Shown here: positions 6,244 to 34,691 of the stretch, one piece after another | Position numbering within the stretch: the first letter of the stretch is position 1 | Layout: each line of letters begins with the position of its first letter | Assembly (NCBI GenBank): GCA_965223575.1 | Contig: CBDCWZ010000010.1 | Span: 1-64,000, forward strand | Length of the DNA: 64,000 bases | Direction: 5' to 3' | Source of the DNA: Kofleriaceae bacterium | GTDB taxonomy: Bacteria; Myxococcota_A; Polyangia; Haliangiales; Haliangiaceae | Program-made: the position numbers and the translations under genes | Notes under the pieces: generated by a model | What the model was told of the DNA's origin: nothing | The model's database searches: none | Seen by the model: only the letters and a program-made list of their open reading frames with translations

Positions 6244-6249
6244 CAAAAC

Positions 6250-6408: not shown

Positions 6409-6441
6409 TCCAGAAACATCAACCCTCAACGAAAGGCAGCC

Positions 6442-6972: not shown

Positions 6973-7029
6973 CCGCACACCGAATGCCACGGGCCACAGA
7001 TCGGATCCGCGAGCCCGCCGGCATTCACT

Positions 7030-7117: not shown

Positions 7118-7118
7118 T

Positions 7119-7203: not shown

Positions 7204-7207
7204 CTGC

Positions 7208-7276
7208 GCCTCGCGGGACGGATCCCAGCTGGGTCTTCTAAACCCGGCGCTCCAGGTTCAATTCCTGGGCGAGGTA
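7208..7276 (+). tRNA. tRNA-Arg(TCT)
   Basis: acceptor gcctcgc/gcgaggt; anticodon stem tgggt/acccg, loop cttctaa; T-arm ccagg-ttcaatt-cctgg; short D-arm. Confidence 0.55.
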
Positions 7277-7277
7277 C

Positions 7278-11489: not shown

Positions 11490-11567
<78 letters not shown>

Positions 11568-15600: not shown

Positions 15601-17248
15601 CGCGATCAAACAGCAACTCTGTTGGCGCGCGCTGGGCCCCCTGCCCTGAACGGACAAACGCGATCTTTCCCAGTAAGCCACGACTCTGCTCATCGTCAGC
15701 AAATGCATCGCACCGCGCCTCGAGCCACTGATAGAAAGCACGGCGGATTTCGCCGTCGGCAAAAACGGTGCTGGCGTGGCCGGGAGTATCGACCAGCGCG
15801 GCGAGAACCTGCCGCGGATTGGCTTTGCCGACCGCATCCGCGTCGGCGGCATGGACGATCGCCGACCATCGCGGATGTCCGATCCTTTTGGCGAATGGAA
15901 GCTCGGCGCAGAATACAAGCTCATGTTCATCGCCGAGGAGCAGATCGCCCGGCACGAGTTCACCGACGAGATTGACTCCAACCGGCAGAGTTTCAAGAGT
16001 TGGACAGGACTCCGCAGCTCGGCCACGAACGAAGGCGACGGCAACCGCTGCTGCTCGCTCCGGTGTCGCCAGGAGCTCGGCCTGTTCGGCTACCGGGGTT
16101 CCCACCTTGGCGATGCGTGATAGTGCTCGCTCAAACGCAGTCAGAGGATTCGAGAAAGTGAGCCACGGCTCGAGTTGCTCAGCCTGCACGTCAGCTTCCG
16201 CCAAGAGCAAGCTCGCTTCGTCGTCATCGAGCGAACTTGACCACAACACGAAAGTATCGTCCTCAACCCAGCGAGTGATGTCCCGGCGGCGAAGGACTTT
16301 TGAGGCGGGCAACAGACCTTGTCGTGTCGGCCAGATCGGTAGTGCGTGCAACGCATCGACGTGCTCTTCCGCCAATCCCGGTAGTTGGTCGCGACTGTTG
16401 ATGAGGGCTTGGCGCAACGCCCATGGATCTGCATCGGGCGCTAGGCCGCCCCCCGCCACCTTGAGTAGATCCACAAAGCTCGCCGGCGGGCGACCAGCCG
16501 CTGCAAGAAAGACTTCCAGTCGGCGAGCCTCTGTCTCGGAAAGCAATGGTAATGCGGTGCCAGCAAACGCTTCGCGCAACTCCGCCGGCACGTGATGCGC
16601 AGAGTTAGCGGCCGGTGCGTCCCAACTGGCCAGTGGCCTGAATACACTGTCGTCACATTGAAAGATCGCAGCGTCGCACACACGGGCCAGGCGTACGCCG
16701 GGAAGATGGCGGCCCGCAGCCGCGAGCAAGTCCGCGATCGCGGACCGTACGTCAATATCCGCGACCGGTAGTGTAGACGTGGCATCACGGTTCTTGGCAG
16801 CGGGCTGCGTCGTCGCAGCGACGAGATCGTCCAAGGCAGTACCGAAGTTCGGGATAACGACCAAATGATCGAGAGCAAGAGCGCGCGCCAGATGCTGAGG
16901 ACTGCCAGGCTCAGTTCCTTCGGTAATGGTGGGCCGATAAGGCCAGCGCTCGTAGAGCGCAGCTACGGCGGGCTCTGTACTGGAATGGCGAAGCTGATGG
17001 ATCGGATAACGACTGCCATCCTCGCTCCGCCAGATCGGCGCAGCCGCCAGTGCCGCGATGGTTGTGGGACTGAGCGCCTCGCGGTGCGTTGCGAGATAAG
17101 CAAAGGCGGCATCTTGGAAGCGAACGTCTTCCTCGCCACCCAAAAGGGCGTTTGCCACTGAGTCGGCATCGACGATCTTGACACCAAGTTTTGCGACGTA
17201 TGGTAGTTCGGCAATGTCGCGGCGGACCCACGCACGCTGGGGCCACAA
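12677..17248 (-). CDS. C-terminal ~1,500 aa of a giant protein: Ala/Leu-rich helical region, Pro/Arg-rich low-complexity linker, C-terminal transglutaminase-like Cys protease domain; probably one gene with 16963-19992 via a frameshift near 17230-17260
   Basis: C-terminus GVCYELNALACELLRRAGIPAVVATGW…DHLWAMAL…D (Cys-His-Asp TGase core); N-terminus of this frame (…DIAELPYVAKLGVKIVDADS) is protein-like and continues where the upstream frame degenerates. Confidence 0.6.
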   Translation of the reverse strand: MWPQRAWVRRDIAELPYVAKLGVKIVDADSVANALLGGEEDVRFQDAAFAYLATHREALSPTTIAALAAAPIWRSEDGSRYPIHQLRHSSTEPAVAALYERWPYRPTITEGTEPGSPQHLARALALDHLVVIPNFGTALDDLVAATTQPAAKNRDATSTLPVADIDVRSAIADLLAAAGRHLPGVRLARVCDAAIFQCDDSVFRPLASWDAPAANSAHHVPAELREAFAGTALPLLSETEARRLEVFLAAAGRPPASFVDLLKVAGGGLAPDADPWALRQALINSRDQLPGLAEEHVDALHALPIWPTRQGLLPASKVLRRRDITRWVEDDTFVLWSSSLDDDEASLLLAEADVQAEQLEPWLTFSNPLTAFERALSRIAKVGTPVAEQAELLATPERAAAVAVAFVRGRAAESCPTLETLPVGVNLVGELVPGDLLLGDEHELVFCAELPFAKRIGHPRWSAIVHAADADAVGKANPRQVLAALVDTPGHASTVFADGEIRRAFYQWLEARCDAFADDEQSRGLLGKIAFVRSGQGAQRAPTELLFDRELPDLGIDWNPADELPSRLVTWLRAAYRPATKQLRPLSDKLLDAADAAIDARDGDRLASIIAHLARALRPDQEGFGDRVRRLQLRKRLRVESASGEFKRPRTLLASTPHDGDLIARFADPMPQRVSRRYEAAETVALLVAAGADAELSEDALRSFLDGNALKPGPDAKVALACYVAGLGHRIPELRNALALRDRTWLVDQNGTPHRPEALYWPSDNLTDLIGEREDRLVHPEVVHRVPNAHEWIGTRDSASADLEDVLATIAAQPPASSEVLAWLNAGLTSGSIDGTKLRDALSHVPMLVDDLGVLRRPGEVVIEGARYRFGDQRGDWSRGAQLGRLASALRIARRPGKRDVVSFISELCATVDWADGVAKAEGKLWAERLPRCLDLLVDSGGHKPPQLAVACHRHEELYVCLLPEAAARIRFAGDEGVGEFEIVLADGAQHSAWASYLAHYGVVSSIGARETSRPPSVVENATGPTIQETFQHGAEPEESAKPKPSEPSPPKGEEGPGFLTRMRQWLRGNDKQDEETKPRPDRRDSTKSEPSSFAPPPAGGPSGSRSQRRPPPARRDPKRDRRWFRSRSNLEEQLADGTGWLADRQRAGTFGLAHSPASLPLPYQYAPQVLYAGFSSWSQSWQRFVGDGSWFRGTDSVGRVRLRGKLPGGEAVIPVPLFGQVSLLQADGMGNGLDHLVDAAGLSVWLNKEDAVVTVEVELFEPPNMENGDRPRRAPRALLEPTVADAELPDEVHDIAASARNETDVLTAAETVRSFIRERYVYDPTYLEDPSVAAWLRQRSRGRSNVHVAALHASSDADTLGRGVCYELNALACELLRRAGIPAVVATGWTFDRGFVDEPDHLWAMALVETNDGSRWLPVDAASTREGRPLRVGPRPPGPWKAPAPTGKPAQRPRWLPVRASRKRKSAVPISDLFRVARYLEKTTDAYLGNRAELLAACETLLRDPERSKVLAKLLAELDERQ

Positions 17249-19992
17249 CGACTCGATTTCTTTATCGGCGGCAATCTCAGCAGCCCTTCGCCCCGCAACG
17301 GGCAGAGCTTGGCTGTCGCGGTCGGAAAAATGTCCGCGGCCGCGACCCGCTCAAACAGGGCTGCACTGATCTCACTCGCTTGCTCGTCGATGGCTCCATG
17401 AAGTAGGGCCACTTGCTCATGGGCGAAAGCGAGCTCGCCCCGCTCGAGGAGTGCAAGCGCTGCACGTAAATCCAGCAAAGGCGTACCGAGATCCGACAGC
17501 CCCGGACCCCACCGGTCTTCGATCTCCCGGCTCACCAGTGGAGGCCGCGTTTCAGCGTCGCGTACAAGATCTGCCAACGCGCCTTCGCCAGTCAGAAACG
17601 CGAGACCAACGCGGGCCCAATCGGCGCGGTCTGTGGGCACGAGAACCGCCTGATCGATACCAGACCGTTGGCCCAGAGGGGCAGCCAAGACGAGTTCCAT
17701 GATCGGATCGAGACCAGCAGCTTCGACCGCGGCGAGCGCCGCTTTCGGATCGGCAAGTCGCGAAATGAGATCCGCCACGGTTGCGCGTGGAACGCCAAGT
17801 CGCCTGACGAATGGTCGACACTCGGACGTGTCGAGTTCAGGCGCAAGCATTGGGCACAAGGGGCGCAGAGCGCTGGCGAGCACGCCACTTCCACGCAGAA
17901 GCTCGGTGGGGGAGCGTGCGCGGCCGGCGTGATCGGGTAAGCAGGGAAGTAACCGTAGGGGGGCGAGGTCGATGTCGGTAGCGCCGAGAGCGACAGCAAG
18001 CTCTGGAAGGTGCTCACGCCAGGGCGCCGAAAAGGCCGCACCAGATACTTGCGCTTCTGCTTCTCGGGCGAGCAACGCAACAACGCTGGACCAAGCGAGA
18101 TCCCGTGCACCCAGTTCTTTCGCGACTTGTTGATGGCGCGCACTGAGTACGTCAACAAGTCGCCTTTCATCCGCGATAACCAGCCCAGCAAGCGCACGCA
18201 CCACACCAGTATCGGCGCAGAGCAGAGCCTCCAACGGCGCGAGCCATCCGCCCCCAGCTGCGGGCAAGAACGCCACGGGCGCAACCTTGGCGGCGATTGA
18301 CTCATAAGCCGGATCTCCAAGCTCCGAGGGTAAGGAGAGGAGGTCGAGCAGTGAACTCGAACCTTGTTGCTCCTGATTGGTGAGCGTGGAAATGAGCTCG
18401 GCGAAGAGCTCGCCCGCTTGGTCGATTGCCCAGCGGTTCCACGGAGATGAAAGGTCCAGTCTCTCTCGATCTACGGGCAGGTCGAAGTGCGCGTGTAACA
18501 GCATTCGCAGGCCCGAGCGTTCGTTGGTAGGAAGGTAGCTGTACACGGTGGGCCGATCGCCCAAAGGCTCCGGCGTACCATCACCGGCCAACGCAATTGC
18601 GACCAACACAGGTGTGGCCGTTGTGCGGCTGGCATCGCGGGGGCCCTCGTAGCGGCATTCTCGTGAGCCAAGAAAGTAGGAGCGAGCGGCGTTGTTGTCG
18701 CGCAGGGTCACGTACTGATCATCCGCACCATGGCGAACGACGGAGCGTCTGCGACTGCCGTACCGTACATGAATCTCTCGCAACGAGTTTAGAGTTAGGA
18801 GCACTTCCGCTGGCAAATCTGCCATTCGTCCGAATAGGCGTTCTCCAGAGCGAGTCTCGTCAGTTGGGTCGCGTAGAGGCAGAATCAGCAACGTACGGTC
18901 CGGTGCGAGACCCGAGCGAGCTTTGAGCGGACGGGGAATCGAGACATCCGCAATCTCGAAGGCGTAGGCGCCAGAGTAGACCTGGGGACGCTCGCAAATC
19001 TCGTAGACCGACTTGAATCCGACACCGAAGAAACCGATTTGGTCTTTGCTCTTCGTCGTCTGGCCAATGGAAAGGAGACCGACAACGTCGCGAGCGTCAA
19101 AGGGGGCGCCGTCGTGCTCGACCTCGACGCGATCCTCTTCGAGACGCAGGTGCCACACACGAGCGCCCGCGTCGTCGGCGTTTTGTAGAAGCTCGATGAG
19201 AAAGTGCCCGGGGTCGGTATAGATCTGACGTGAGAGAAGCTGCTCTGCGTTGGCCTGGCTCAAAGACTTGGGTTGCGCCTCTAGTGTGTCTAGCAGTTCT
19301 GCCGCGAAACTAGCCAGTCGCGCGTTCCACGCTTCACTCACGTCCGCGTTCGCGGCTATTGCTGCCAGCTCGACAGTGTTTGCGCCGGGTATGCGCATAA
19401 GCTCGCGATCGCCAATTCTGTCTAGGGCCCCGGTACCCAGTGCTTCGCGACAGATGTTCAAGGCCCCGTCCACCATAGAACTGCGTGCCGATGGCGCGAC
19501 GTTCTTGAGCCACCGATCGATGACGGCAAAGGCCGTGATGCGCGTGGCCGGCAGTTCTGCAGCACACCGCACGAGAGCTTCAGCGAATTCAATCACAGCC
19601 GGCGCCCCCTCGAGCGCGCGCAAAACCCTCCGAAGGCCAGTGTCGGGTAGTGCTGTAACCACGCTCGCGATTGAGTCCGCTGAGCCGACGAGCTCGCCGC
19701 TAACCGCGAGATTCGCCAGCATCCGTGCCAGGGGTTCGTGATCGCGAAAGGAGGCAAGTTCAGTGACCAGATCGGGTCCACGCCCCTGGCGAAGAGCTTC
19801 GTCAATGGCGACAATCTGCTCGGGAAACGGCAACCGCCGTAGTGCTGATGGCTCGCTGGTCAACTGGGCCAATCTACCAGCATGATCAGAGTAAGGCCAT
19901 ACCGGCAGCCACAGGCGTATTGTCACCCAAAGGGGCCGCTCGAAAGACGCGATCCGCGGCGTATTCGTCGGGCGATCACCATGCTGTTCCAT
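16963..19992 (-). CDS. N-terminal part of the giant protein: sacsin/Hsp90-like GHKL ATPase domain; last ~100 codons of this frame look non-coding, so the true reading frame probably shifts into 12677-17248
   Basis: SRQIYTDPGHFLIELLQNADDAGA (GHKL N-box as in the sacsin SRR/Hsp90-like ATPase), then GLLSIGQTTK, GFFGVGFKSVYEI; true start codon unclear (ORF start overlaps terminase fragments). Confidence 0.6.
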   Translation of the reverse strand: MEQHGDRPTNTPRIASFERPLWVTIRLWLPVWPYSDHAGRLAQLTSEPSALRRLPFPEQIVAIDEALRQGRGPDLVTELASFRDHEPLARMLANLAVSGELVGSADSIASVVTALPDTGLRRVLRALEGAPAVIEFAEALVRCAAELPATRITAFAVIDRWLKNVAPSARSSMVDGALNICREALGTGALDRIGDRELMRIPGANTVELAAIAANADVSEAWNARLASFAAELLDTLEAQPKSLSQANAEQLLSRQIYTDPGHFLIELLQNADDAGARVWHLRLEEDRVEVEHDGAPFDARDVVGLLSIGQTTKSKDQIGFFGVGFKSVYEICERPQVYSGAYAFEIADVSIPRPLKARSGLAPDRTLLILPLRDPTDETRSGERLFGRMADLPAEVLLTLNSLREIHVRYGSRRRSVVRHGADDQYVTLRDNNAARSYFLGSRECRYEGPRDASRTTATPVLVAIALAGDGTPEPLGDRPTVYSYLPTNERSGLRMLLHAHFDLPVDRERLDLSSPWNRWAIDQAGELFAELISTLTNQEQQGSSSLLDLLSLPSELGDPAYESIAAKVAPVAFLPAAGGGWLAPLEALLCADTGVVRALAGLVIADERRLVDVLSARHQQVAKELGARDLAWSSVVALLAREAEAQVSGAAFSAPWREHLPELAVALGATDIDLAPLRLLPCLPDHAGRARSPTELLRGSGVLASALRPLCPMLAPELDTSECRPFVRRLGVPRATVADLISRLADPKAALAAVEAAGLDPIMELVLAAPLGQRSGIDQAVLVPTDRADWARVGLAFLTGEGALADLVRDAETRPPLVSREIEDRWGPGLSDLGTPLLDLRAALALLERGELAFAHEQVALLHGAIDEQASEISAALFERVAAADIFPTATAKLCPLRGEGLLRLPPIKKSSRCGPSVRGSAATLPNYHTSQNLVSRSSMPTQWQTPFWVARKTFASKMPPLLISQRTARRSVPQPSRHWRLRRSGGARMAVVIRSISFAIPVQSPP

Positions 19993-22951: not shown

Positions 22952-25900
22952 GTGACCGGTCGGCGGCGAATCGGCAAAACTACTTTGATTCAGAAGGCCC
23001 TCGGGTCTGAACGGAAACACGGGGTTTTTTACATCCAAATTCCCGACTCAGGTCCTGCTGGTGTTCTGTCTGGAATTGCAGACGCTATGGATACTTTTGC
23101 GATTAATGAGGACGCCTTTCCTCGGCCAACGAATCTATCGCAGCTCGCCAGCATAGTGGGCCAACTGGCGCGCGCGGGCTATATTGTAGCGCTCGATGAG
23201 TTTCAGTATTTCAATCGTGCGAGACTGAAGGACTTCTGCTCACTGCTTCAGAGCGAGGTCGACAGACTATCGTCAGATGCCGAGAAGTATGCGCCCAATG
23301 CGCCCCATGTAGCATGAATCATCTGGCGGCAGTATTGTCGCTACATGGAACCATGCGGTTCAACAAACTCGATCGGTTTATTCCTGATCGACAATCTTCT
23401 CAGCGAGCCATTGAGCAGGGGTAGCGGTTCTCAGCTGGTTGGCGGAGATGCCGGCGGCGATTCTGTGAAAGATGTCTCTGAGATACTCGTAGGGGTTGGC
23501 GCCGACAAGGGTGCAGTTGAGCACAGCAGTCATGATGGTGGCGTAGCGTTGTCCTGCTTCGCGAGAGCCGACGAAGAGTGCATTTTTGCGAACCAGCGTA
23601 ACGATCCGGAGCGCACGCTCGACATGGGCATTGGAGATCGGCACCGAACCGAACTGCAAAAACAGGCCCAGGGCTTCGCGCTGCCGAGTCCAGTAGGTAA
23701 GCGCTTTGGCCAAGGGGGTACGAGATTTCCTCTGTTGGGCAAACTTGGCAACATAAGCATCGATGTCCGCAATCATGGCAACAGAATGTTGTTGACGAAG
23801 CGCGAGGCGTTGTTCGTCAGTCATCTGGTTGTCCTGGGCGTAACGCTCCACCTGATACAGTCTTGCCATCAAATCGATGACTGGTGCAGCTCGTTTGTCA
23901 CCACTGTCGAGCGCATGAACAAATTTTCTACGCGAATGGTCCATACAGCCAGCCTGCCGTGGTGGGGCCAATCCTCGATAGAGTTTTTTGATTCCCGCAT
24001 ATCCATCATGTTGCGTGTTGCCCTGAAATTCGGCGAGAAGTTTACAAGGGTAAATCCCTTTCCAGTCCGGCGAAAATTCACAATACGCGGTCCGCCCGCG
24101 ATCGCCCAAATAGATCCAAAATCGCCCACGCTGAATGTTTTTGGGATGGGCAGGATTTTGCATTGGCATGGGGGTATCGTCAAAGCTGATCAGTGCGCTC
24201 TTGAGTAGGTCTGTCTTGGCGCCTGGGTTAAAAACGGATAACAGCTCGGCCCCTTGCGCATACCACTGTCCCAATGTTTTGTCAGATAGCTCGATCCCGC
24301 GTCGCAGCAATGCGGTGCTTTGACGATACAGAGGCATCGCGTCGCAGACTTTGCTCGTCATGATTTGCGCCATCAGGCTGGGGGTTACCACGGAGCCTGG
24401 GATCAGTTTGGGCGTTAAATTCCCGCTGACAATGCCGTCTTTGCAGTCACGACACGCGTATTTATGAGCGCGTTCTTCGCGGACGAAGGCATGTTGCTGG
24501 TTCAAATTCTAGGTGCACTGTTTTGTCGAAACCAATGTGGTCCTTTTCGCGATTGCAGCCATTACAGTGGCGTTCCGAATCAGGGGGATGTTTGTCGTCG
24601 ATCACTCGCTCGAGATTGTCTAAATTTGTGGTCCGCTTCTTACGCTTTTTTCTCTTGTGAGCAGGAGTCTTCGATCGTTTCCTTTGGTAAGTCCGAAGGC
24701 CCCCTCGGCCACCATGTATTCTAGGAGCGCGAGTGACAACTGAGCCGGGGAGATTTTTTCTGAGCTCGGACGATATTTCGACGCAATCTGCCTCCGCATA
24801 CCATCGATTTCTTGTTTCATGCGCTCAATGATCGGCATGGCTTCGGCAAGAACTTCTTGGCCGGCTTCACGCTCCTTGTCCGTTGCCAGATTGGCAGTGA
24901 CCGAAACAAGAAATTCGTGAATCGATGCCGTATCGATAGAGCCTTCCCACGTCCCCACACCTCCTTGTATCACGCGTGTCCGACATTCTCACCTTTACGA
25001 AACTCTTGATTGCGATTGTTTTTCCGCGAAGAAGTTTCGCCAAATCCTCTGCTTTGATCTCGATCGTGTTCCTGATCTTGTTTGGGAATCGGAAATGTCC
25101 CAGACTCAAGTCGCTTCGCCAAAATGCAATATCCCTGCTGATCAAAAAACAAAATCTTGAGCAGATGACGCCGACGATTGGCAAATACGTATAGATGGCC
25201 GGTTTCTGGATCTGCGTCCAGCGCTTCACGAACAACCTTCGCAAGACCATCAAACTGTTTCCTCATGTCAACAGGATTCACTGCCACAAAAACGCGGACC
25301 TTCGTCGGTAGCGTTAACATGAGCCATCCAGAGAGTTTGCCCACTCGCAGACATTCTCGCCGATCCGACTTGGAACAAAACAATAAACGCCTGCCGTTTT
25401 TGAGAACGAGCTCGTAGCGGGGTTCTCCGCTCAAAGCAATCTCGTCACGAACCTTTACTTCAACAAATTCTGTCTGGCCAGATTGTTTTTCACGCCTCTG
25501 CCAACTCCATAACGCAGACGCCGAGATCCCATGATGTTTGCCAAATTCTACCGCAGACCGATTGCTCTTCTGCCATGCGCGGAGAATCTTTCGCTGCTCT
25601 GCACGACTTCTTTGAATCCGTTTTTGCATTCCATGCGGTTTAACTCGACAGGCTGCTGCGCGAAACATGGGGCTCACGGGGCGCATACGCCGAGAACGTC
25701 TCTGGGGGGACTGCTCGTTCTGGGATCCATTCACACCGAGATGTCCACGCTTCTAGAAGATCGGAGCGCTCCGTTATTCAATCGCACCACCGACGAAATC
25801 GCGCTATCTCACCTGGACGTTGGTTCCCTAATCAAATTGCTGGACGCGCATACTGATTCGACGCCAGAGCGACTGTTATTTCTTTGGAATATGTTCGAGG

Positions 25901-26743
25901 GAGTGCCGAAGTTTTATCGCGACTGTTACGAACAAGGAGTAATAGATGAGGATCGCAACAAACTGCTAAAGCGGGTTTTCTTTCAGAGTTCGTCTCCACT
26001 CAGAACCGAAGCCGATAACTGGTTCTTGAAAGAAATCCACGGACGCTATGATGTGGTGCTCAAATTCATCCGCGCGAAATGGTGGTTGCAGCCATGGAGA
26101 ACTCGTAACCCACGTTCGTAACGTTAGTGGCGAAGAAAGTGAACAGGTTGGCGGCTATCTGAAGGGGTTGATAGAGAAGTATGGACTAATCGAGAAGAAG
26201 CTACCCATCTTTGCAAAACCAAAAGCACGCAAGGGTCGATATTACATTTCCGATAACTTCCTGCGCGCATGGCTGGCGGCTATTGCAAATCAGGTGGCTG
26301 CACTCAATTTCGTTCCGGCGGACAAACTCATTGCAACAACAAATGATCGCCTTGCGGAAGTTGAAGGATTCGCTTTGGAGAAACTGGTTGGGCAGATCTA
26401 CGAGGAATGTAGCCGCAAAGGAGTGGGCGATTTCCTTTTGTCCGACCGAGTTCAAGGTTTTTGGGATCGCAATGACACGGAAATCGATCTCGTGGCTCTC
26501 AATGAAACAGAGCGTCGGATCAGATTTGGCAATTGTAAGCGATCAGCCACAAGACTCGTTGCTGATTTCACAAAATTCGACGGCCATGTCGCACGATTTC
26601 TTAAAGCTCACAAAAAGTACCAAGATTGGACTGTAGAAAAAGCGGCTATCGCACCGACTATCCCGCCGGGAATCCGAGAAGTCATTCTGTCTCACCAGTA
26701 CCTTGCTCAGGATCTAAATGATTTAACTCGTCCGTTACGGTAG
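22952..26743 (+). pseudogene. ATPase_2 (PF01637)/DUF234-family AAA+ ATPase gene disrupted by an IS66 insertion and frameshift (pieces 22952-23317, 25740-26121, 26048-26743)
   Basis: N-terminal TGRRRIGKTTL (Walker A); C-terminal …YYISDNFLRAWL…EIDLVAL (DUF234); paralog of the intact 48059-49549 gene. Confidence 0.65.
23330..25760 (-). mobile_element. IS66-family insertion sequence (tnpA-tnpB fused ORF + frameshifted tnpC)
   Basis: 24970-25734: IS66 Orf1 HTH (RAEQRKILRAWQKS…) fused to Orf2 (VFVAVNPVDMRKQFDGLA…HLYVFANRRRHLLKIL); 23378-24973: TnpC (…ISNAHVERALR…) split into two frames. Confidence 0.85.
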
Positions 26744-26999
26744 ATTCCTATCGCCATCGGTTTTAGCGAACTTGTTTAGAACCCAGTGACACCAAGAGAA
26801 CTTCACCCCCTTTTTCCGTCACTTTTGGACCATTGCTGTCACACAGGGTCTCGTTGCAACTTAGCGAAGTATTTGACCCCTGATGTGAAATTAGAAAGCT
26901 AACGTCGTCTGCTTTCAACGTAGATCGGCACCTGCGCCTCCTTTCTTGCTTGGGCGCTCCAGGGTCACGAGCTCGATGCGATCGAACAGGTGGCGCAGT

Positions 27000-28024
27000 T
27001 CATCGGCTTCCTCTCGAATAATCGCAAAACGCTTGGGTGCACCCAAATCCTCCGCTCCCAGCTCCGAGCAGCGGAAGCGCCACCGTCCGTGCTCCCAACC
27101 AGTGTGCCAGGCGAAGGGATGACTGCGCCGCTTGTCTGATCGATTGCTCCGACGCTCGCCACGCCAGATCAATCGCGTCGGCGTGGATCACCCACTTCGC
27201 CGCAAGCTGGCCGGCGTTTGTTTCCATGGCGTTGCCCAGCGGCAGTGGGCCTGCTCTGCCGGCGGCCGCAATGACTGCCCGCCCGCCCGCACTGCGGATC
27301 GCCCGCGCCACTCCCTGGGGTATGACAAGCCACGGAGGGATGAGATTTCGATTCCACGCGTTCACGATGGCATCGACTTCGCGAGCGGCGATATCTCCCT
27401 CAACCTCGATGATCTCGGCCCGGGTGGCGCTCACCGCCTCCTGAACGGCGAGTCGATCTGCCAGCCAGACGAGGGAATCGCGATGCTGAACTGTGCCCGC
27501 CCACTTCTCAGGGAGGGCTAGGACTCCGATTTGGGCGCCGATGCACGCCGCTACTGTGGCACCAATGCTGTCGGTATCTCCGCCTGCGCGGAACACTGCA
27601 TTCATCGCAGCCTGAATATCCGTGCCGTGATCGAGGAGAGTGTGAACCACGGCCGACATGCAACCGCAATGGTAAGCTGTGTATCGTCGGATACATCTCC
27701 GGGACGGCGCAAGAAACGAATTAGGCCCCGCCGCATTCGTACTGCACCAGGATAACGAAGTCGAGTCATCCAACGCGGTAGGCTCTCCGCTGGCAGGTTG
27801 AGCGCATCACCGACACCCAGGCCAACCAAGCAACCACGGCATCGATCGATGCGCTCACTCACCTCGCGAGAATCGGTTGGTTCAAGCTCCGGGTAGGCGT
27901 GTCGAGCCCAGCGAATTCGGCACGCCGCCACGAAAGCTCTCCAAACAAGATACCCGGCGCTGACGATCCACAGCGCCGTGAAGGCGAAGCGCACCAAGTC
28001 CACCGTCATTGTGCTCCCTCCCAA
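27000..28024 (-). pseudogene. ADP-ribosylglycohydrolase (ARH/DraG-like) fused to a C-terminal Macro domain; single frameshift near 27700
   Basis: 28024-27602: LVGLGVGDALNLPAE and GDVSDDTQLT (ARH N-terminal motifs); 27773-27000: GGDTDSIGATVAACIGA (ARH C-terminal), then AIVNAWNRNL…AAKWVIHA (Macro). Confidence 0.6.
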
Positions 28025-28204
28025 CGCCTGATGCCCAGGCGCTCGCTCGTTTTCCGATCCGATATCGGAAATACGCTCGGTCGCCCGGACTTTGGCCAGT
28101 GATCATGCAGCTCTACATACTTTTCCGTGCGGAGGTTCATTTGGATCTTGCCTTTGTGTACTTGGTACATTAAGCTATGTGTATAGAGTACACAATAAGA
28201 AACC

Positions 28205-28894
28205 ATGACTGTTACCTACAAATATCCGCGCCCCGCTGTCGCGGTCGATTGTGTGGTCTTTGGTGTCGATGATGAGGACCTAAAGGTACTCCTGATTCAA
28301 CGAGATCTGAAACCATTTGAGGGCTCGTGGGCGCTGCCCGGCGGCTTCGTTCACATGGACGAAGGCCTCCCCGATGCTGCTCGTCGCGAACTCAAAGAGG
28401 AGACGGGCCTCGGGCGTGTGTTCCTGGAGCAGCTCTTCACCTTCGGCGCCGTCGACAGAGATCCGCGAGGCCGCGTCGTGTCGGTCGCCTACTACGCGCT
28501 GGTGCGGCTTATGGATCATAAGGTTCAGGCCGCCACGGATGCCCGCGACGCGAAATGGTTCCCCGTCTGGGACACGCCATCACTGGCGTTCGACCACGAG
28601 CGGATCCTGCAAACAGCTCTCGACAGGCTCAAGGGCAAGGTGCGTTATCAGCCCATCGGCTTCGAGCTCCTGCCCAAAAAATTCACCTTGAGTCAACTCC
28701 AAGGCCTCTACGAAACCATCCTGGAGCGCGAGCTCGATCGGCGGAACTTCCGCAAGAAAATCCTGTCCATGGACATTTTGGAGGAGCTCGATGAGGTTCA
28801 GGAAGGCGTCGCCCACCGTGCGGCTCGCCTCTATCGCTTCAACGAGCGCAAATACAAGAAGCTCGTCAAAGCGGGCTTCGACTTTCAAATTTGA
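28205..28894 (+). CDS. Nudix hydrolase with C-terminal winged-helix domain (NrtR-like ADP-ribose-responsive regulator/ADPR pyrophosphatase)
   Basis: [26 protein letters not shown] (Nudix box) plus ~90-aa C-terminal extension typical of NrtR. Confidence 0.7.
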
Positions 28895-28903
28895 GGAATC
28901 AAC

Positions 28904-29401
28904 ATGTCGCAGATTTTATACAAGACAGGTGACGCAACTCAGCCCACGACCACCGGTTGCAACATTATCGCCCACATCTGCAACGACCTTGGTGGCTGGG
29001 GGAAGGGGTTTGTCGTAGCAATTTCTCGGCGTTGGCCTGGGCCAGAGAAGGAGTATCGACGGTGGCATGCAGAGAAGTCGCCTGCGTTCGAGCTTGGGGC
29101 GATGCAACTCGTAGCGGTCAGCTCCACACTTGCCGTGGCGAATATGATCGCGCAGCGAGGAATCCGTAGCACATCGGATGGTCCTGCCATTCGGTACGCG
29201 GCCCTTCGAACATGCCTCGAGACGCTAACAGATCACGCACAGCGTCTCCGTGCCAACGTGCACATGCCCCGCATCGGGTGTGGTCTTGCTGGAGGAAAGT
29301 GGGAGCAGATCGAACCGATCATCAAAGATACGCTAATCGCTGGGGACGTCTCGGTGCATGTCTATGACTTCGCACCATCCGGTCCCGCGAGAAAGGAGTA
29401 G
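28904..29401 (+). CDS. Macro-domain protein (ADP-ribose/O-acetyl-ADP-ribose binding or hydrolase)
   Basis: [19 protein letters not shown] … [13 protein letters not shown]. Confidence 0.7.
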
Positions 29402-29404
29402 ACA

Positions 29405-30430
29405 ATGGCAGAGATCAGAGACTTCGGGATTGTTCGGCACCTTCGGGCGGATCCGACTTCGCACATCATCAAGTACAAGAAGGGCCAAGTGCATCGAGCG
29501 GGTCGTGGTGGCGCCCTGTGGTTCTTGCCGATGTCTACGGCCCTGGCGGAAGTGCCGGTCGATGATCGCGAACTGTCGTTCCTGTTCCATGGTCGGTCTT
29601 CGGACTTCCAGGACGTCACGACCCAGGGTGTCATCACCTACCGGATCGCAGCGCCTGAGACAACGGCCGACCGGATTGACTTCAGCATCGACCTCCGCTC
29701 GGGGGTTCACCGGAAACAACCGCTAGAGAAGCTGGCGCTGTTTCTCAATGAGCTGGCCCAACAGTTTGCCTGGGCCTACGTGGTGCGAACTCCGGTTCGC
29801 GAGCTGCTCGTAAGCGGCCAGGAAAAAGTTCGCCAGGACATCATGGCCGGCTTTGCGCAAGAAAATGGGCTGGCGGACCTGGGCATCGAGATCGTCTCGA
29901 TCCGCGTGTCATCCATCAAGCCAACCGCCGACCTGGAGAAGGCCTTGGAGACCAAGACGCGGGAAAAGATCCAGCAAGAGGCCGACGAGGCGATGTTCGA
30001 GCGCCGCGCCCTGGCTGTGGAGAAGGAGCGTGCCATTGCCGAGAACGAGCTACAAAACCAGATCGAACTCGCGACTCGAGAAGAGCAGCTCATCGCCCAG
30101 CAGGGACAAAACGAGAAGCGACGCATCGAAGAGGGGGCCGAGGCCAAGAAGATCGCGGCGCAGGCGGAGGCGGAGCGAACAGAGATCCAGTCTCGCGCCA
30201 AAGCTGGAGGGATCCGGTTCGTGGAGAGCGCAAGAGTTGCGGGCGAGCGCGAGCGCATGGAGATCTACCGGGACTTGCCACCCGCCGTAACCATGGGGCT
30301 CGCGGCCCGCGAGCTTGCCGGCAAGCTCCACAAGATCGAGCATCTCAACCTGTCGCCGGATCTGCTCGGACCGTCGCTGCTGAACCTCATGAACCTCGGC
30401 GCCAAGAAGCTAGATCCGGCAGACGGGTAG
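29405..30430 (+). CDS. SPFH/band-7 (stomatin/prohibitin-like) domain protein with coiled-coil C-terminus
   Basis: …[43 protein letters not shown]…. Confidence 0.7.
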
Positions 30431-30437
30431 CCAAAGG

Positions 30438-31337
30438 ATGAAGGGAAACAAGGCGCCCAGGGTCGTGGTAGTGACGCGGCCAACTCAATACGACGAGTTG
30501 ATCGCTCGCCACGCGACTCGGCAGCAGGCGGAGTTCTTCCTCAAAGGCCGGGGACAATCGCTGGAGTCCGTGGACCGTGCCCACCAGCTCTGGCTCTCTG
30601 CTGTCGAAGCCATTTCGCAGGCGATACCTGTGTCGTGGCGGAGGTCTGCGGTTTCCCGCCTTGACCTCAATCGGTTCGTCTTCGAGCCCAGCGACCTTGT
30701 TGTCGCTGTCGGCCAGGACGGCCTTGTGGCTAACGTCGCTAAGTATCTCAGCGGACAGCGGGTCGTCGGCATCAATCCAGATCCTGAGACCTACGATGGC
30801 ATCCTGGTTCCGCACCAGCCCAGTGCCCTCAAGCGGCTGTTTAGGTCGGTGAAGGATGAGCGATGCGAGATCGAGGCGCGGTGCATGGTCTCTGTGACCG
30901 TCGATGACGGCCAGAAGCTCCTTGCGCTCAATGAGCTCTTTCTCGGGCATCGCACTCACCAGTCGGCGCGATACCGAATTGGCTGGGCAGGAACCGAGGA
31001 AGTACAATCATCCTCGGGGCTCATTGTCACAACCGGGACCGGCGCCACAGGCTGGGCTCGGTCCATTTGTCTGCGGCGCATCGATCCACCACGGTTGCCA
31101 ACACCGACAGAAGCGAGTCTCGCCTTCTTTGTGCGTGAAAGTTTCCCAAGCGTTGGCACAGGGATCGCAATCCAAGACGGACTGATCCCGCAACCCGAGC
31201 AACTGAACGTCGTCTCGCAGATGAACGACGGCGGAGTCATCTTCGGCGACGGGATCGAGAACGACCGAATTGACTTTCACTGGGGCATGACGGCCAACAT
31301 TCAGGTGGCGGATGTACGCCTACAACTCGTGCGCTAG
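30438..31337 (+). CDS. NAD kinase-like (ATP-NAD/diacylglycerol kinase fold) protein
   Basis: LVVAVGQDGLVANVAKYL…VVGINPDP (GGDG-type motif, degenerate), later TTGTGATGWARS; starts 8 nt after the SPFH stop. Confidence 0.55.
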   Translation: MKGNKAPRVVVVTRPTQYDELIARHATRQQAEFFLKGRGQSLESVDRAHQLWLSAVEAISQAIPVSWRRSAVSRLDLNRFVFEPSDLVVAVGQDGLVANVAKYLSGQRVVGINPDPETYDGILVPHQPSALKRLFRSVKDERCEIEARCMVSVTVDDGQKLLALNELFLGHRTHQSARYRIGWAGTEEVQSSSGLIVTTGTGATGWARSICLRRIDPPRLPTPTEASLAFFVRESFPSVGTGIAIQDGLIPQPEQLNVVSQMNDGGVIFGDGIENDRIDFHWGMTANIQVADVRLQLVR

Positions 31338-32283
31338 GAGAACCATGCTGCTGCAGCCAATATCAACCCAACTATCAAAGGCTCGCCGGATTTTGCTTGC
31401 GGGCTGTGGCGGCGGATACGATGTGATGGGAGCGGTTCCACTGTTGGTGGATCTTCTAGCGGCCGGGCACGATGTCGCGCTGGCCAACCACTCATTCTCC
31501 AATCTGGCGGATCTGCCGCGCGTACTCCAGGACGCCGAAGTTGATTGTCTGTATGAGGTGCCACCGTCAGCCGCCACGTCGGACAGGTATTGCCCGGAAG
31601 CTTGGCTTGCGCGATGGTGTGCGGAGAGACTTGGGAGGGAGGTCCAGTCGTGGGCCTTCGCCAAGAAAGGCTCGCGACCATTGCACGCTGCCTACCAACG
31701 GCTTATCTTCGAGCATGACTTCGATGCCATCGTTCTCATTGATGGAGGCATTGATGCAATTTTGCGCGGCAATGAGTCCTCTCTTGGGACACCCGCAGAG
31801 GATCTCGCTTCTCTCGCGGCGGTTTCACGACTCGATGTGCCCATCAAACTCATCGGGTGCGTTGGGTTTGGCGGCGAGATGCGCGATGGGATCTGCCACG
31901 ACCAAGTGTTCGACCGCATCGCCGAACTTACGGCACTCGGCGCGAACCTAGGCAGTGCCACGCTCCTCGCACAGACCTTGGCGGGACAGCGCTACCTCGA
32001 GGCGGTGGATTACGTGTTCGCCAACCAACAGGGCCAGCGCACCAGCCACATTCACAAGGTTGTGAGTGCTGCCGTCCGTGGCGAATCGGGCAGTCGCGGC
32101 GAGCATGTCTGGCTCTCGCCACTCCTCAATCAGTTTTGGTTCTTCGACCTCATGGGCGTCACCGGCAGTCATCTGTTCCTAGAGCATCTCTGGGACACGC
32201 AGGAGAGCTGGGACGTCTCGGCTCGTATCGAAGGACTCCGCAAAGGCGTGGACATCTTGCCTCGATCGAGGATTCCGATCTGA
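31312..32283 (+). CDS. DUF1152-family protein
   Basis: ILLAGCGGGYDVMGAVPL… N-terminal signature; overlaps the previous gene end (operon). Confidence 0.5.
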   Translation: MYAYNSCARRTMLLQPISTQLSKARRILLAGCGGGYDVMGAVPLLVDLLAAGHDVALANHSFSNLADLPRVLQDAEVDCLYEVPPSAATSDRYCPEAWLARWCAERLGREVQSWAFAKKGSRPLHAAYQRLIFEHDFDAIVLIDGGIDAILRGNESSLGTPAEDLASLAAVSRLDVPIKLIGCVGFGGEMRDGICHDQVFDRIAELTALGANLGSATLLAQTLAGQRYLEAVDYVFANQQGQRTSHIHKVVSAAVRGESGSRGEHVWLSPLLNQFWFFDLMGVTGSHLFLEHLWDTQESWDVSARIEGLRKGVDILPRSRIPI

Positions 32284-32298
32284 TGAATCAGCACCATC

Positions 32299-32562
32299 CT
32301 AGATCCCTAGCGCTACGCATTGGAGCGCGGATTTGAAACGCCAATGCGACGAGGTTTCAAGACCATCATCTTCGTGGCCGTCAATCACGGCGATTCCGGC
32401 TAGATGGGCACGATCGAGATTCGTCGTAAGCGGCACGACTAGAACCGATTGTAGTGCTCGGATGAGGGCATCACTCTGCCATACCACCACTGGGCGTCTG
32501 CCTGTTTGCTCAAGTGGACGATGGGCACCGAGATCAGCCCACCAGATTTCGCCGCGCTTCAT
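32299..32562 (-). CDS. mazF: MazF/PemK-family endoribonuclease toxin
   Basis: MKRGEIWWADLGAHRPLEQTGRRPVVVWQSD…; a truncated copy of its first ~28 codons lies at 11936-12020. Confidence 0.75.
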   Translation of the reverse strand: MKRGEIWWADLGAHRPLEQTGRRPVVVWQSDALIRALQSVLVVPLTTNLDRAHLAGIAVIDGHEDDGLETSSHWRFKSALQCVALGI

Positions 32563-33315
32563 CTAGCATCTTCTTCAGCCAGCATCTCGCACCACTCATC
32601 TATTCCTTGATCAGCAAGGACCATATCCTCTTCCTCACCAATCTTGGCGAGACGATTTAAGTCGCGGGATCGGGACGGCGAAGCACGATCGAAGAGACAC
32701 GCTCTCCATGGCTAAGATCTAGACGTTTGCCGGGCTTGAGCACACCGTCACGGTATTCAGCTTCAATTGGCTTCACAGTCAATAGGTTACCATGTTCCCA
32801 AACTGCGGGCCATCGCCGTGATTTGGCCCTAGAAAAAGCAACAAAAACGAGAGGTTCAAACCGTCTCCGAAAGCGGCGCAGAGCGTGATTTTTCCGGGCT
32901 AGTCCTCGATTGGGCATAGACGGGGAATTCCAACAAACGATTCGCCACACACACTACAACGCTTTACGTTCACACCAATCAAGGTAACGCGAACGCCCTG
33001 GGCATCGTACAGATAGTTTTCTCTTGCAGACTTCAACTGCCCGTCACAATGTATGCACTTCATGTCCATCTCCCCAAACTAGCGATGCGTCCGCCATACT
33101 GTGACGATGACAAGCTCGAACTCACTCCAGAAGCAACCACAACGGTGGGCAACACGCCGAATAATAATGCGTGTCATTGCTCAGACGCGTGGTCTGCCGG
33201 TAGCTCTTCCTGAAAATCTTCCCAAGAAGTTCCTTCGTCGGGATCTCGTTCGTACTCTGCTAGCCGTTCGTCTAATACTTTGCGGTGCCAGTTGGGAACT
33301 TCAACTTGCTCTGAT

Positions 33316-33546
33316 TTATGGCCGAAATCCTGCAATTTTTCTCAGTGGACAGGGTGCTCGCCGACGCGCCCGCTTCGCGATGAGGCCCAAGCATTTCCGG
33401 CAAGTCACGGCTCGAAGATCGTCGGTTGCAATACCCTCGACCTCAGCTCGATGGGCAGCCTCGAGATCCCTGGGATTACACAACACCATGTCTTCTGCGT
33501 TGAGAGCATGTAGATCGCACGTTGTTCTCCTGTCGGCCATGTTCAT
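33316..33546 (-). CDS. small hypothetical protein translationally coupled to rtcB (ATGA overlap)
   Basis: 76-aa ORF starting 4 nt before the rtcB stop. Confidence 0.35.
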   Translation of the reverse strand: MNMADRRTTCDLHALNAEDMVLCNPRDLEAAHRAEVEGIATDDLRAVTCRKCLGLIAKRARRRAPCPLRKIAGFRP

Positions 33547-34691
33547 GTCCCCTTGTAGACCAGCACTGGTTCCAAACGCCGGACGATGCGTGTAAGCGTT
33601 TTCTGTGCCCGCATTACTTTGTTGATGTTCTTATAGGCCCCGGGAGCCTCGTCTCGCAGACGGCCCGCGATGCGGTGATCGAACCAGATGCCAGTCATCT
33701 GCTCGACCAGTTTATTAATGCTGATTGCTCTTCGAGCCTCGGTTCGGCTGAGGCAGCGACCAGCACCATGAGAGCTTGAACACAAAGACTCGACATCGCC
33801 CCGGCCCTCAACGTGAAAGCTGGCACTACCCATTGATCCGGGGATAATCCCCGGTTCTCGTAAACGGGCTGAGATAGCCCCTTTGCGGTGAACCCACAGC
33901 AGTCGATCTTGGTGTTTCTCCTGTCTAACGAAGTTGTGATGACAGTCAAAGTACGACTCCCACCGTGCAACGCTGCCGGTGACGTCTTCCAACCTGCGTG
34001 CGACGACCTCGGCCATGCGCCGTCGACTCAGCCGCGCATAATCAAGAGCCCACTTGAGATCGTGCAAATAGGCTTGCCCAAGCGACGAATTCGCAGGCAT
34101 CGAGCGTAGACCTCCGTCGGCACCACCATGATGTTCACGGATACCCTGGCCGATCCCACGGGATCCGCTGTGCACCATCAACCACAGCGCGTTCTCGGCA
34201 TCGCGTTGAAATTCGATGAAGTGATTTCCGCGCCCCAGTGTTGCGAACTGCGTCCTAGCGATTTTGGTTTTCTTCTTTTCCAGAGACGACACCGACAGTT
34301 TTCGACTGGCTAGCTCGTCGGGAAGCCTTGCGTTGACTGATCTGTGACTCGACGTAGGCACTTGATTCGCCAGCATCGTGAGCACGCGAGCCGCCATAAT
34401 TCGGTCGTTTAGAAGGTTCGCGTCAGTATCAAATCGCAGCGCCGACATCCCACAACCAATATCGCCTCCCACGGCATCGGGAAAGAGATGGCTGTGCGTT
34501 GCGACGACGGTACCAACGCACACCGCTTTGGCAAGATGTACATCGGGCATCACTGCGACCACAGCGACGTCCTGCAACTCCGCGATCCTATCCAGCGCCC
34601 TGCGAACGTCCGCTGGTAGCGCGTCATGGGTCCACGTTCGGACAGGCATGCGGCTACTCATTGCCAACCTCCTGTTCCCAATTCCCGTCAC
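33543..34691 (-). CDS. rtcB: RNA 3'-phosphate/2',3'-cyclic phosphate ligase RtcB
   Basis: DVHLAKAVCVGTVVATH…GGDIGCGM…NHFIEFQ…MVHSGSRGIGQ…CHHNFV…SSSHGAGR. Confidence 0.9.
   Translation of the reverse strand: MTGIGNRRLAMSSRMPVRTWTHDALPADVRRALDRIAELQDVAVVAVMPDVHLAKAVCVGTVVATHSHLFPDAVGGDIGCGMSALRFDTDANLLNDRIMAARVLTMLANQVPTSSHRSVNARLPDELASRKLSVSSLEKKKTKIARTQFATLGRGNHFIEFQRDAENALWLMVHSGSRGIGQGIREHHGGADGGLRSMPANSSLGQAYLHDLKWALDYARLSRRRMAEVVARRLEDVTGSVARWESYFDCHHNFVRQEKHQDRLLWVHRKGAISARLREPGIIPGSMGSASFHVEGRGDVESLCSSSHGAGRCLSRTEARRAISINKLVEQMTGIWFDHRIAGRLRDEAPGAYKNINKVMRAQKTLTRIVRRLEPVLVYKGT

Follow-up and report, generated by a model that had tools for sequence, protein, structure and literature searches.

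The window, the whole 64,000-nucleotide (64 kb) stretch analysed here, contains a plus-strand operon in the order nrtR, Macro, SPFH, NADK-fold kinase and DUF1152, with an ADP-ribosylglycohydrolase (ARH)-Macro pseudogene diverging from it (Table 1). The intergenic gaps were 9, 3, 7 and 7 nt. There were no overlaps because DUF1152 starts at 31345, a position supported alike by its homologues, by an AGGAG ribosome-binding site and by the 312-aa call of the source record; the DUF1152 profile match spanned 31312/31345–32283. The first-pass annotation had proposed a single, tightly spaced plus-strand operon with ARH-Macro divergent, which was borne out, whereas the overlaps that it reported beside an 8-nt gap were not. 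Its domain calls held in profile searches, except that it had ascribed ADP-ribose domains or an NAD-kinase fold to all six genes, and SPFH and DUF1152 are no ADP-ribose domains. The cluster lies, as it had stated, between IS66 (23378–25734) and toxin-antitoxin genes (32299–33335), the latter present as remnants. A disrupted PDC-S27-type ATPase is also found among the neighbours.

Table 1. Features of the NrtR operon and its divergent neighbour in the window.
Feature	Coordinates	Strand	Remarks
ARH-Macro fusion pseudogene (ADP-ribosylglycohydrolase + Macro), membrane-anchored type	26915–28009	-	Pieces 27602–28009, 27000–27773, 26915–27050
Two NrtR-type operators (predicted)	28156–28193	.	GTGTActtggTACAt (28156–28170); GTGTAtagagTACAC (28179–28193); shared divergent promoter region
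nrtR, Nudix-domain ADP-ribose-sensing repressor (predicted)	28205–28894	+	NUDIX E 1.6e-21; NrtR_WHD E 5.4e-30
Macro, SCO6735/DarG-like class, predicted ADP-ribosyl hydrolase	28904–29401	+	Variable slot of the operon
SPFH/Band 7 protein with coiled-coil tail (probable NrtX)	29405–30430	+	Band_7 E 1.5e-13
NAD-kinase-fold enzyme, distinct NADK2-like family (probable NrtY)	30438–31337	+	Motifs; profile and fold matches
DUF1152, Rossmann-like enzyme candidate	31345–32283	+	Recurrent but optional accessory gene

The Nudix box of NrtR was intact (GFVHMDE...RELKEETGL). The protein matched the NCBIfam model of the ADP-ribose (ADPR)-responsive repressor with E = 2e-51, under the model cut-off, and was 92% identical to a Haliangium ochraceum protein. 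The consensus core of NrtR operators is GT-N7-AC (PMC2330246). In the whole 64 kb, GTGTAN5TACAC with ≤ 1 mismatch occurred twice (0.57 expected), and both matches were the promoter palindromes. Their TGT and ACA columns were invariant across the orthologous promoters of loci L011, L017 and L012 and present in L101. The intergenic region contained no match to a sigma-70 consensus promoter. The ADP-ribose/NAD-sensing theme proposed earlier is supported by an ADPR-responsive repressor family and two promoter operators of NrtR type. ADPR-dependent release of NrtR from DNA is documented for the family (PMC2330246); by analogy, ADPR would be the inducer of the window operon.

The divergent gene gave ARH and Macro profile matches on the minus-strand ORFs 27000–27773 and 27602–28024. 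Pfam recovered only positions 1–59 and 234–286 of the ARH profile, plus Macro. The frameshift noticed in the first-pass annotation was confirmed, but it was an incomplete description of the damage. Compared with intact homologues of 500–565 aa, the window copy has a deletion of ~ 160 codons that removed alignment columns 124–286 (~ 160 residues of the ARH core). Near 27045 the reading frame shifts a second time; once corrected for frame, the C-terminus, REEADELRHLFDRIELV, can be aligned with the homologues. ARH-Macro is dead in the window copy, and L101 has an intact gene of 500 aa in this divergent arrangement.

The Macro protein encoded in the operon matched Pfam weakly (23.4 bits), with weak DarG matches in PADLOC and NCBIfam. 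It aligned over its full length with SCO6735 from Streptomyces coelicolor (PDB 5e3b, E = 1e-53), and 2afc and 2fg1 were also matched. Members of the SCO6735 family hydrolyse ADP-ribose linked to proteins and to thymidine (PMC5087735, PMC9411070). The SCO6735 gene itself stands alone and is reported to be controlled by DNA damage, whereas the window Macro is a cassette that can be exchanged within an NrtR operon. Nucleotide homology to L014 and L011 stops exactly around the Macro gene, and between > 80%-identical flanks this fixed slot carries Macro, NADAR or DUF4291. The Macro position is a swap-in slot.

The kinase had no match in Pfam, including the NAD_kinase model, and its matches to the NCBIfam NAD-kinase models were sub-threshold, far under the cut-off. 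Against NADK2 in the PDB, the window protein scored E = 2e-9 and its family profile E = 1.8e-16. The AlphaFold model (pLDDT 89) had the NADK fold, with NADK2 as the best structural match (TM 0.75). The family comprises 407 clusters at E ≤ 1e-30, with the invariant motifs GQDG, NE and SSSGxIVxTGTGATGW; the GxDG Asp, the NE motif and the Gly-rich motif are all invariant, and the canonical GGDG is replaced by GQDG. NADK2 (C5orf33; PDB 7r4j, 7n29), experimentally shown to be an NAD kinase (PMC3535332), shares the N-terminal RVVVV..T.Y strand and SSG...TGTGxxxW. The two differ in that identity is about 20%, NADK2 has GGDG, and the bacterial kinase has 299 aa, lacks the NADK2 insertions and shares its operon with an SPFH protein and NrtR. 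The retained catalytic Asp, together with the NADK2-like motifs and fold, suggests that NAD is the substrate. Because the enzyme carries GQDG in place of GGDG, has no Pfam match and scores low against NCBIfam, it could also act on another adenine dinucleotide or ADPR.

The SPFH gene was located directly upstream of the kinase gene in all 76 related loci, and two proteins (P0435 and P0492) are SPFH::kinase fusions; this adjacency and the fusions point to a physical SPFH-kinase complex. The SPFH domain is followed by a coiled coil, as in HflK/C, flotillin and stomatin, and the best PDB sequence match, a weak one, was HflC. Unlike those proteins, the window SPFH lacks a transmembrane anchor (no hydrophobic segment, maximum KD19 0.88) and an NfeD or FtsH partner, its obligate partner being the kinase. 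None of 61 SPFH homologues had a hydrophobic N-terminal segment.

NrtR adjoined the pair in 21 of the 28 fully flanked loci. NrtR could regulate the other seven in trans, an arrangement that Rodionov et al. list for Streptomyces in their 2008 table (PMC2330246). The NrtR-SPFH-kinase trio was also found in Proteus mirabilis and on the Rhizobium etli plasmid p42f, and the SPFH-kinase pair on Streptomyces plasmids. In 2008, Rodionov et al. listed nrtX-nrtY as NrtR targets of unknown function (PMC2330246). The Proteus, Rhizobium and Streptomyces layouts match their nrtR<#>nrtX-nrtY entries, which supports our assignment, based on locus layout and not stated in that paper, that the SPFH-kinase pair is very probably nrtX-nrtY. 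The roles of SPFH and DUF1152 had been called undescribed; for the core pair this is not wholly so, since it was already in the 2008 target list, albeit with no function given there. The window operon and the 2008 loci share a Nudix and winged-helix repressor and GT-N7-AC palindromes before a two-gene unit. In Proteus mirabilis, NrtR is divergent from SPFH-kinase, with three GT-N7-AC sites, whereas in the window nrtR is co-directional and first, Macro is inserted, DUF1152 is appended and ARH-Macro is divergent.

Core identity was 55–60% among the retrieved relatives, most of them Myxococcota MAGs or unassigned contigs from metagenomes, and 38–50% to Streptomyces, Rhizobium and Proteus. Macro, NADAR, DUF4291, NadA, ARH, SIR2_2 and DUF1152 come and go in related loci. 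An NAD/ADPR theme runs through the exchangeable neighbours (DUF1152, DUF4291, NadA, ARH, NADAR, NAMPT and SIR2_2), in keeping with an ADPR-inducible operon. The conserved part of the cluster is NrtR-SPFH-kinase only. The earlier reading of six genes as one module therefore stands as far as co-localisation is concerned, as it recurs elsewhere, but not for the extent of the conserved unit. The cluster is one copy of a widespread, probably NrtR-controlled bacterial operon, accompanied in the window by additional genes for ADP-ribose removal, of which ARH-Macro is dead.

An NrtR-controlled, ADP-ribose-inducible operon is the best explanation of these observations, and we hold it with moderate confidence. 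Most likely, it is an ADPR-induced stress operon that strips ADP-ribose adducts and makes NADP. At rest, NrtR dimers on the two GT-N7-AC operators, which overlap the promoter, would repress nrtR-Macro-SPFH-kinase-DUF1152; ancestrally, the same repression would have covered the divergent ARH-Macro gene. As the physiological trigger, we infer NAD consumption by ADP-ribosyltransferases, sirtuins or NADases, which would raise free ADP-ribose. Its binding to the Nudix domain would take NrtR off the DNA. The induced SCO6735-type Macro would remove ADP-ribose from modified protein or DNA, yielding more ADPR for NrtR, and the NADK2-like kinase, with the anchor-less SPFH protein, would convert NAD(H) to NADP(H). 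DUF1152 would be an optional accessory enzyme, with a sugar-nucleotide-like candidate substrate.

Iyer, Burroughs, Anantharaman and Aravind (2022, PMC9503650, section 3.8) predicted ARG-centred, Nudix-/WYL-regulated systems against viral ADP-ribosylation, and the window operon could likewise serve specifically in counter-defence or immunity against foreign ADP-ribosylation, although we regard this as unlikely. ADPR from phage- or toxin-modified targets would then induce the erasers Macro and ARH-Macro, and the kinase, by turning NAD into NADP, would shield the pool from NAD-consuming effectors. In both kinds of system, an ADPR-sensing Nudix-HTH repressor occurs with ARG and Macro/NADAR erasers but no coupled transferase, and the accessory genes vary. 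The fixed slot and the erasers or ART-like genes of equivalent function that it carries (Macro, NADAR, DUF4291), SIR2_2 downstream in the closest relatives, and the IS66, disrupted ATPase and toxin-antitoxin remnants around the window copy also fit, and orphan SCO6735-type macrodomains have been proposed to protect against toxic ADP-ribosylation (PMC11833690). However, the SPFH and NADK-fold kinase core is not mentioned in PMC9503650, the rhodanese-phosphatase, TY-chaperone and REase partners, of which phosphatase and chaperone are typical of the published ARG systems, were not seen at the window locus, and ARG is optional and dead in the window copy while the remaining operon is intact. Moreover, PADLOC gave no match for SPFH, kinase or DUF1152, 2.9 million viral contigs yielded one kinase match and zero DUF1152 matches, the core proteins are well conserved and evolve slowly, and their neighbours in other genomes are mostly housekeeping or NAD biosynthesis genes (NadA, NAMPT). 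The phage-host or inter-bacterial conflict suggested in the first-pass annotation is not demonstrated by these results; a function dedicated to phage defence is conceivable, but support for it is weak.

Within an ADPR-switched operon rich in ADPR-releasing enzymes, the kinase might instead serve signalling or salvage by phosphorylating ADP-ribose or a related product of NAD breakdown, and make no NADP, with SPFH as the effector or compartment receiving the product. The GQDG motif, the separation of the family from housekeeping NadK, and the obligate SPFH linkage, shown by no canonical NAD kinase, would agree with this. We consider it improbable, given that the non-NadK motif variants SSG and TGTGxxxW are common to human NADK2 and that evidence for any alternative substrate was not found. 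Least probable is that the six-gene grouping in its wider form, with DUF1152 and MazF, arose by chance in a decaying island that surrounds a conserved core of three genes. The region is rich in pseudogenes, synteny with the closest relative stops at 32287, and DUF1152 homologues of 54–61% identity stand alone in unrelated contexts. Nevertheless, in 5 of 50 loci DUF1152 comes after the kinase (39–91% identity, tight spacing), with an overlapping ARH gene behind it in L053, and for a rare family this is far above chance. The divergent ARH-Macro arrangement recurs in L101. For MazF, we accept the chance juxtaposition. The PemK/MazF match at 32299–32562 covers 67 of 109 profile positions and thus represents a truncated remnant. 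MazF and IS66 are decaying neighbours outside the module.

The five plus-strand genes of the cluster formed a compact operon, in which the successive ORFs were separated by 9, 3, 7 and 7 nt and most were preceded by a Shine-Dalgarno-like motif. All five (5/5) were full length relative to their homologues. The domain calls of the first-pass annotation, which had described a six-gene ADP-ribose/NAD cluster, stood up to profile searches, comparison with the PDB and fold modelling, and the cluster is confirmed, with corrections. The regulator combined an N-terminal Nudix domain (PF00293, E = 1.6e-21, residues 11-135) with a C-terminal winged helix (PF21906, E = 5.4e-30, residues 152-212). The Macro protein resembled solved members over its full length (5e3b, E = 1.1e-53; 2afc, E = 1.3e-51; 2fg1, E = 6.7e-51), as expected of the SCO6735-type (ALC1/TARG1/DarG-like) macrodomain hydrolases. 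The SPFH protein scored 51.6 bits against PF01145 (cut-off 23.6), and the DUF1152 protein 41.3 bits against PF06626 (Pfam gathering cut-off 27), a family also matched by its homologues. The DUF1152 start had been misplaced at 31312; the start at 31345 is backed by the alignment, the annotation of the source record and a ribosome-binding site.

Coordinates of the operon, its predicted operators and the neighbouring insertion element
Feature	Position	Strand	Remarks
IS66 TnpC	23378-24505	-	element within 22952-26743
IS66 TnpB	24970-25734	-	element within 22952-26743
NrtR-type palindrome, predicted operator	28156-28170		GTGTActtggTACAt
NrtR-type palindrome, predicted operator	28179-28193		GTGTAtagagTACAC
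NrtR-type regulator	28205-28894	+	NUDIX and NrtR winged helix; Nudix box intact by direct reading
Macro domain	28904-29401	+	Pfam match weak; macrodomain 5e3b (SCO6735), E 1e-53
SPFH/Band 7 protein	29405-30430	+	Pfam PF01145
NADK-fold kinase	30438-31337	+	NADK2 sequence, profile and fold matches
DUF1152	31345-32283	+	312 aa

The kinase gave no match to a Pfam family at E ≤ 0.01, and its best NCBIfam NAD-kinase score (30 bits, cut-off 316) fell below the curated family threshold. In the PDB sequence search it matched human mitochondrial NADK2. The profile of 25 homologues retrieved NADK2 with E = 1.8e-16, while no bacterial NAD kinase scored better than 8.6e-7. The AlphaFold model (pLDDT 89.2) adopted the two-domain NADK fold; NADK2 was the top Foldseek match (E = 4.8e-21, TM 0.75), and the top 50 matches were all NAD kinases. 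The GQDG, NE and SSSGxIVxTGTGATGW motifs were kept in 25/25 aligned members. GQDG stands in place of GGDG and retains the catalytic Asp. The NE and SSSGxIVxTGTGATGW forms are common to NADK2, and the latter replaces the Gly-rich xxTPTGSTAY motif. Phosphorylation of NAD(H) is the most likely activity predicted for the enzyme, because it has kept the fold, the catalytic Asp and the motif forms specific to NADK2, for which NAD kinase activity is proven (PMC3535332). A search of 1.84 billion representatives placed 407 clusters in the family at E ≤ 1e-30.

Ninety loci with kinase relatives were collected from genomes, metagenomes and look-ups. An SPFH gene lay directly upstream of the kinase in each of the loci with enough upstream sequence (76/76), and 21 of the 28 fully flanked loci had an adjacent NrtR-like gene, which was upstream and co-directional in 17, divergent in one and downstream in three. 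HflK/C and stomatin carry an N-terminal membrane anchor, whereas the SPFH protein of the window has none. No transmembrane segment was found in this protein or in 61 homologues; its maximum 19-residue hydropathy was 0.88, and an N-terminal hydrophobic segment was present in 0/61 homologues. Two database proteins, P0435 (574 aa) and P0492 (654 aa), were single polypeptides with an N-terminal SPFH and a C-terminal NADK-like domain, and thus fusions of the two invariably neighbouring genes, unless the gene calls are artefactual.

As reported by Rodionov et al. (2008, PMC2330246), the NrtR targets include nrtX-nrtY, a two-gene unit of unknown function that adjoins nrtR or has NrtR sites of its own, named for Streptomyces, Kineococcus, Frankia, Hahella and Proteus mirabilis (nrtR<#>nrtX-nrtY). 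In P. mirabilis, we observed three GT-N7-AC palindromes separating SPFH-kinase from a divergently oriented NrtR-like gene. A NUDIX gene was divergent from SPFH-"sugar kinase" on Rhizobium etli p42f, and a Streptomyces plasmid carried SPFH and kinase genes with no adjacent nrtR. The P. mirabilis and Streptomyces arrangements both match the nrtX-nrtY table of 2008; the paper itself gives neither locus tags nor domain names. From these three layouts, we equate by inference nrtX with the SPFH gene and nrtY with the NADK-like gene. Our literature search returned no paper linking SPFH, NAD kinase and NrtR. With this assignment, a gene pair of the NrtR regulon listed as of "unknown function" since 2008 would gain an identity. 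The pair occurs in Myxococcota, Streptomyces, Rhizobium plasmids and Proteus, and points to a second, ADP-ribose (ADPR)-induced NAD-kinase-like enzyme, distinct from the housekeeping NadK. Its obligate pairing of SPFH with an enzyme could also give a handle on bacterial SPFH function. The copy in the window is itself ordinary; it is as a family that the SPFH-NADK2-like pair is of value. On the Streptomyces yangpuensis plasmid psa3239 (locus L098, 1168-4891), SPFH-kinase was directly preceded by a gene for a von Willebrand factor A protein; such proteins are among the 'chaperones' of published ARG-centred systems (PMC9503650).

Both palindromes lie in the 195-bp divergent intergenic region. Their 15-nt pattern had two matches in total in the 64-kb window, with 0.57 expected by chance, and the TGT and ACA columns were invariant among the promoters of orthologous operons. 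NrtR sites were described as 21-bp palindromes with a GT-N7-AC core, and ADP-ribose was shown to release NrtR from DNA (PMC2330246); the same core is present upstream of our operon. A scan of the intergenic region for sigma-70 and terminator consensus found none. In the best-supported reading, the operon would be repressed by NrtR and induced by ADPR.

The gene on the other side of this region, the minus-strand ARH-Macro gene (26915-28009), is dead. Intact homologues of 500-565 aa combine a hydrophobic helix at the N-terminus with a complete ARH domain and a Macro domain. In the window, Pfam matched the ARH profile only at positions 1-59 and 234-286, each stretch in a frame of its own, and then Macro; no frame of this copy holds an entire ARH domain together with Macro. 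In the alignment with homologues, including those of 500-509 aa, ~160 residues of the ARH core were absent. Removal of one base near 27045 restored the C-terminus REEADELRHLFDRIELV, matching the homologues. As core residues are missing, the frames are split and the C-terminus is restorable by a one-base removal, the gene has lost a large internal segment and changed frame twice. A frameshift had already been noted here and is real, but the gene does not carry a single lesion: ~160 residues are deleted and a second frameshift lies near 27045. The source record annotates just a 219-aa remnant. In the related locus L101, kinase<-SPFH<-NrtR is divergent from DUF4291->ARH-Macro (500 aa); the divergent layout of the window is therefore ancestral, not accidental. 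L101 also has palindromes, within an entire divergent spacer of ~70 bp.

Between nrtR and the SPFH gene, the nucleotide homology of the window with its closest relatives ended at 28912 and restarted at 29393. The segment 28913-29393 was compared with 456-1067 of L014, one of these relatives, and with 2289-2929 of the Haliangium locus L011, and the flanking homology resumed at the gene boundaries. The slot contained Macro in the window and in L012, NADAR in L014, DUF4291 in Haliangium ochraceum and NadA in L034, and was empty in some loci. It behaves like a cassette at a fixed position. The Pfam families that recurred in a set of 97 neighbours on the same strand were DUF1152 (5), DUF4291 (4), NadA (3), ARH (3), NADAR (2), NAPRTase/NAMPT (1) and SIR2_2 (1). 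An atypical ART-like fold was proposed for DUF4291, together with Nudix, Macro and ARH as its neighbours (PMC12522546). The best-supported reading is that the SPFH-associated NADK2-like kinase is the conserved engine and the ADP-ribose/NAD enzymes are changeable, those of the window being the SCO6735-type eraser, DUF1152 and the dead ARH-Macro. In the closest relatives, a SIR2_2 gene followed either DUF1152 (L014, 3954-4496) or the kinase (L011, 5042-6790); a gene for a 556-aa unknown protein was next in L011. Synteny of the window with its closest relative ends at 32287, and no SIR2_2 remnant was found.

DUF1152 was located tightly 3' of the kinase in five loci (39-91% identity), in one of which an ARH gene overlapped it. 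Homologues at 54-61% identity were found alone, in unrelated neighbourhoods, and DUF1152 as a core component is ruled out by five distant homologues standing alone in unrelated contexts. The model (pLDDT 92.6) showed a Rossmann-like α/β protein. Residues invariant in the family alignment included the glycine-rich loops GCGGGYD and DGGxD, as well as two cysteines, three histidines and several acidic positions. We did not place the protein in the LmbE / PIG-L family of metal-dependent deacetylases, because the LmbE metal motif (AHPDD and HxxH tested) is absent. A putative sugar-nucleotide ligand is a reasonable guess and nothing beyond. No mention of DUF1152 was found in the literature search.

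To the left of the cluster we observed an IS3 fragment, an integrase fragment and an IS66 element, the latter inside a PDC-S27/DUF234-type ATPase gene. Pieces of this AAA ATPase flank the element (N-terminal, 22952-23317; C-terminal and frameshifted, 25531-26743), and IS66 appears to have inserted into the gene. The cluster has 56-62% GC against 49-55% in the immediate flanks, and its proteins are 82-97% identical to Haliangium-like Myxococcota sequences; because of this contrast and this identity, the data fit lateral acquisition into a decaying island. On the right, toxin-antitoxin debris on the minus strand (32299-33335) comprised a truncated MazF, two ORFs of AF2212-like and Zn-ribbon type, and an 'Unstab_antitox' fragment. 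The MazF ORF (87 aa) covered profile positions 1-67 of 109, and the ORFs upstream of it were the AF2212-like and Zn-ribbon ones, not MazE. Being truncated, on the opposite strand and past the synteny break at 32287, MazF was rejected as a component of the module. An RtcB-family RNA ligase gene (33543-34691) directly follows the debris, with RbfA and HflX beyond. We dropped RtcB as a partner through RNA-repair ADPR chemistry, as the RtcB-like matches at related loci were distant and fragmentary.

A dedicated anti-phage or anti-toxin role for the operon is possible, given the cassette swapping, the SIR2_2 neighbours and the island context. ARG-centred, Nudix/WYL-regulated systems with Macro/NADAR accessories were predicted to counter viral ADP-ribosylation by Iyer et al. 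(2022, PMC9503650), who mention neither SPFH nor NAD kinase. These systems share the Nudix transcription factor with the window; however, they have a functional ARG core, whereas the ARG gene of the window is a pseudogene and ARG is optional in related loci (3/50). A rhodanese-phosphatase or TY-chaperone, such as usually accompanies these systems, was not seen. With all cluster proteins, PADLOC returned just a weak DarG-macro match (39 bits; 31 bits in NCBIfam vs the cut-off of 250), a Nudix match and, for the ATPase fragment next to the cluster, a match to PDC-S27; therefore, the cluster does not correspond to any catalogued defence system. A DarT-like ORF was sought in the cluster and none was found. 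The viral-contig scan gave one match for the kinase and none for DUF1152. The absence of the core from PADLOC and its near absence from viral contigs thus weigh against a defence role, as do its slow evolution and its position next to NadA, NAMPT and housekeeping genes. The sole viral-collection match, L100, is a putative viral IMG/VR contig of 257,533 bp with an NrtR-like gene, then SPFH and kinase, at 1694-6864.

We regard the window copy as one variant, in part decayed, of an NrtR target operon that is widespread and named, though uncharacterised. The original interpretation is supported in part: the tight operon and its ADP-ribose/NAD-sensing theme hold up, but the six genes are not a single conserved unit. 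A more far-reaching proposal strikes us as rather unlikely: NrtX-NrtY would be a widespread bacterial machine in which an anchor-free SPFH assembly houses or gates the NADK2-like kinase. ADPR would switch it on to convert NAD to NADP under NAD attack by ARTs, NADases or sirtuin-type effectors, swap-in erasers would clear the adducts, and the family might be the source of the mitochondrial NADK2 lineage.

By profile and by fold, the kinase family is nearer to human mitochondrial NADK2 (TM 0.75) than to bacterial NadK (TM 0.57-0.65), which raises the question of whether NADK2 derived from it. Papers on NADK evolution and on NADK2 were found to contain no discussion of this bacterial family, which offers a concrete bacterial relative for testing the origin of NADK2.

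Elsewhere in the window, 16 tRNA genes are packed within ~4 kb at 3228-7277 (+), many of them 2-15 nt apart, and a tRNA-Gly gene stands apart from them at 11490-11564 (-). A block of ~62% GC at 12677-19992 (-) is taken up by two adjacent and very large genes, one for a transglutaminase-core protein of 1523 aa and the other for a sacsin-domain protein of 1009 aa.
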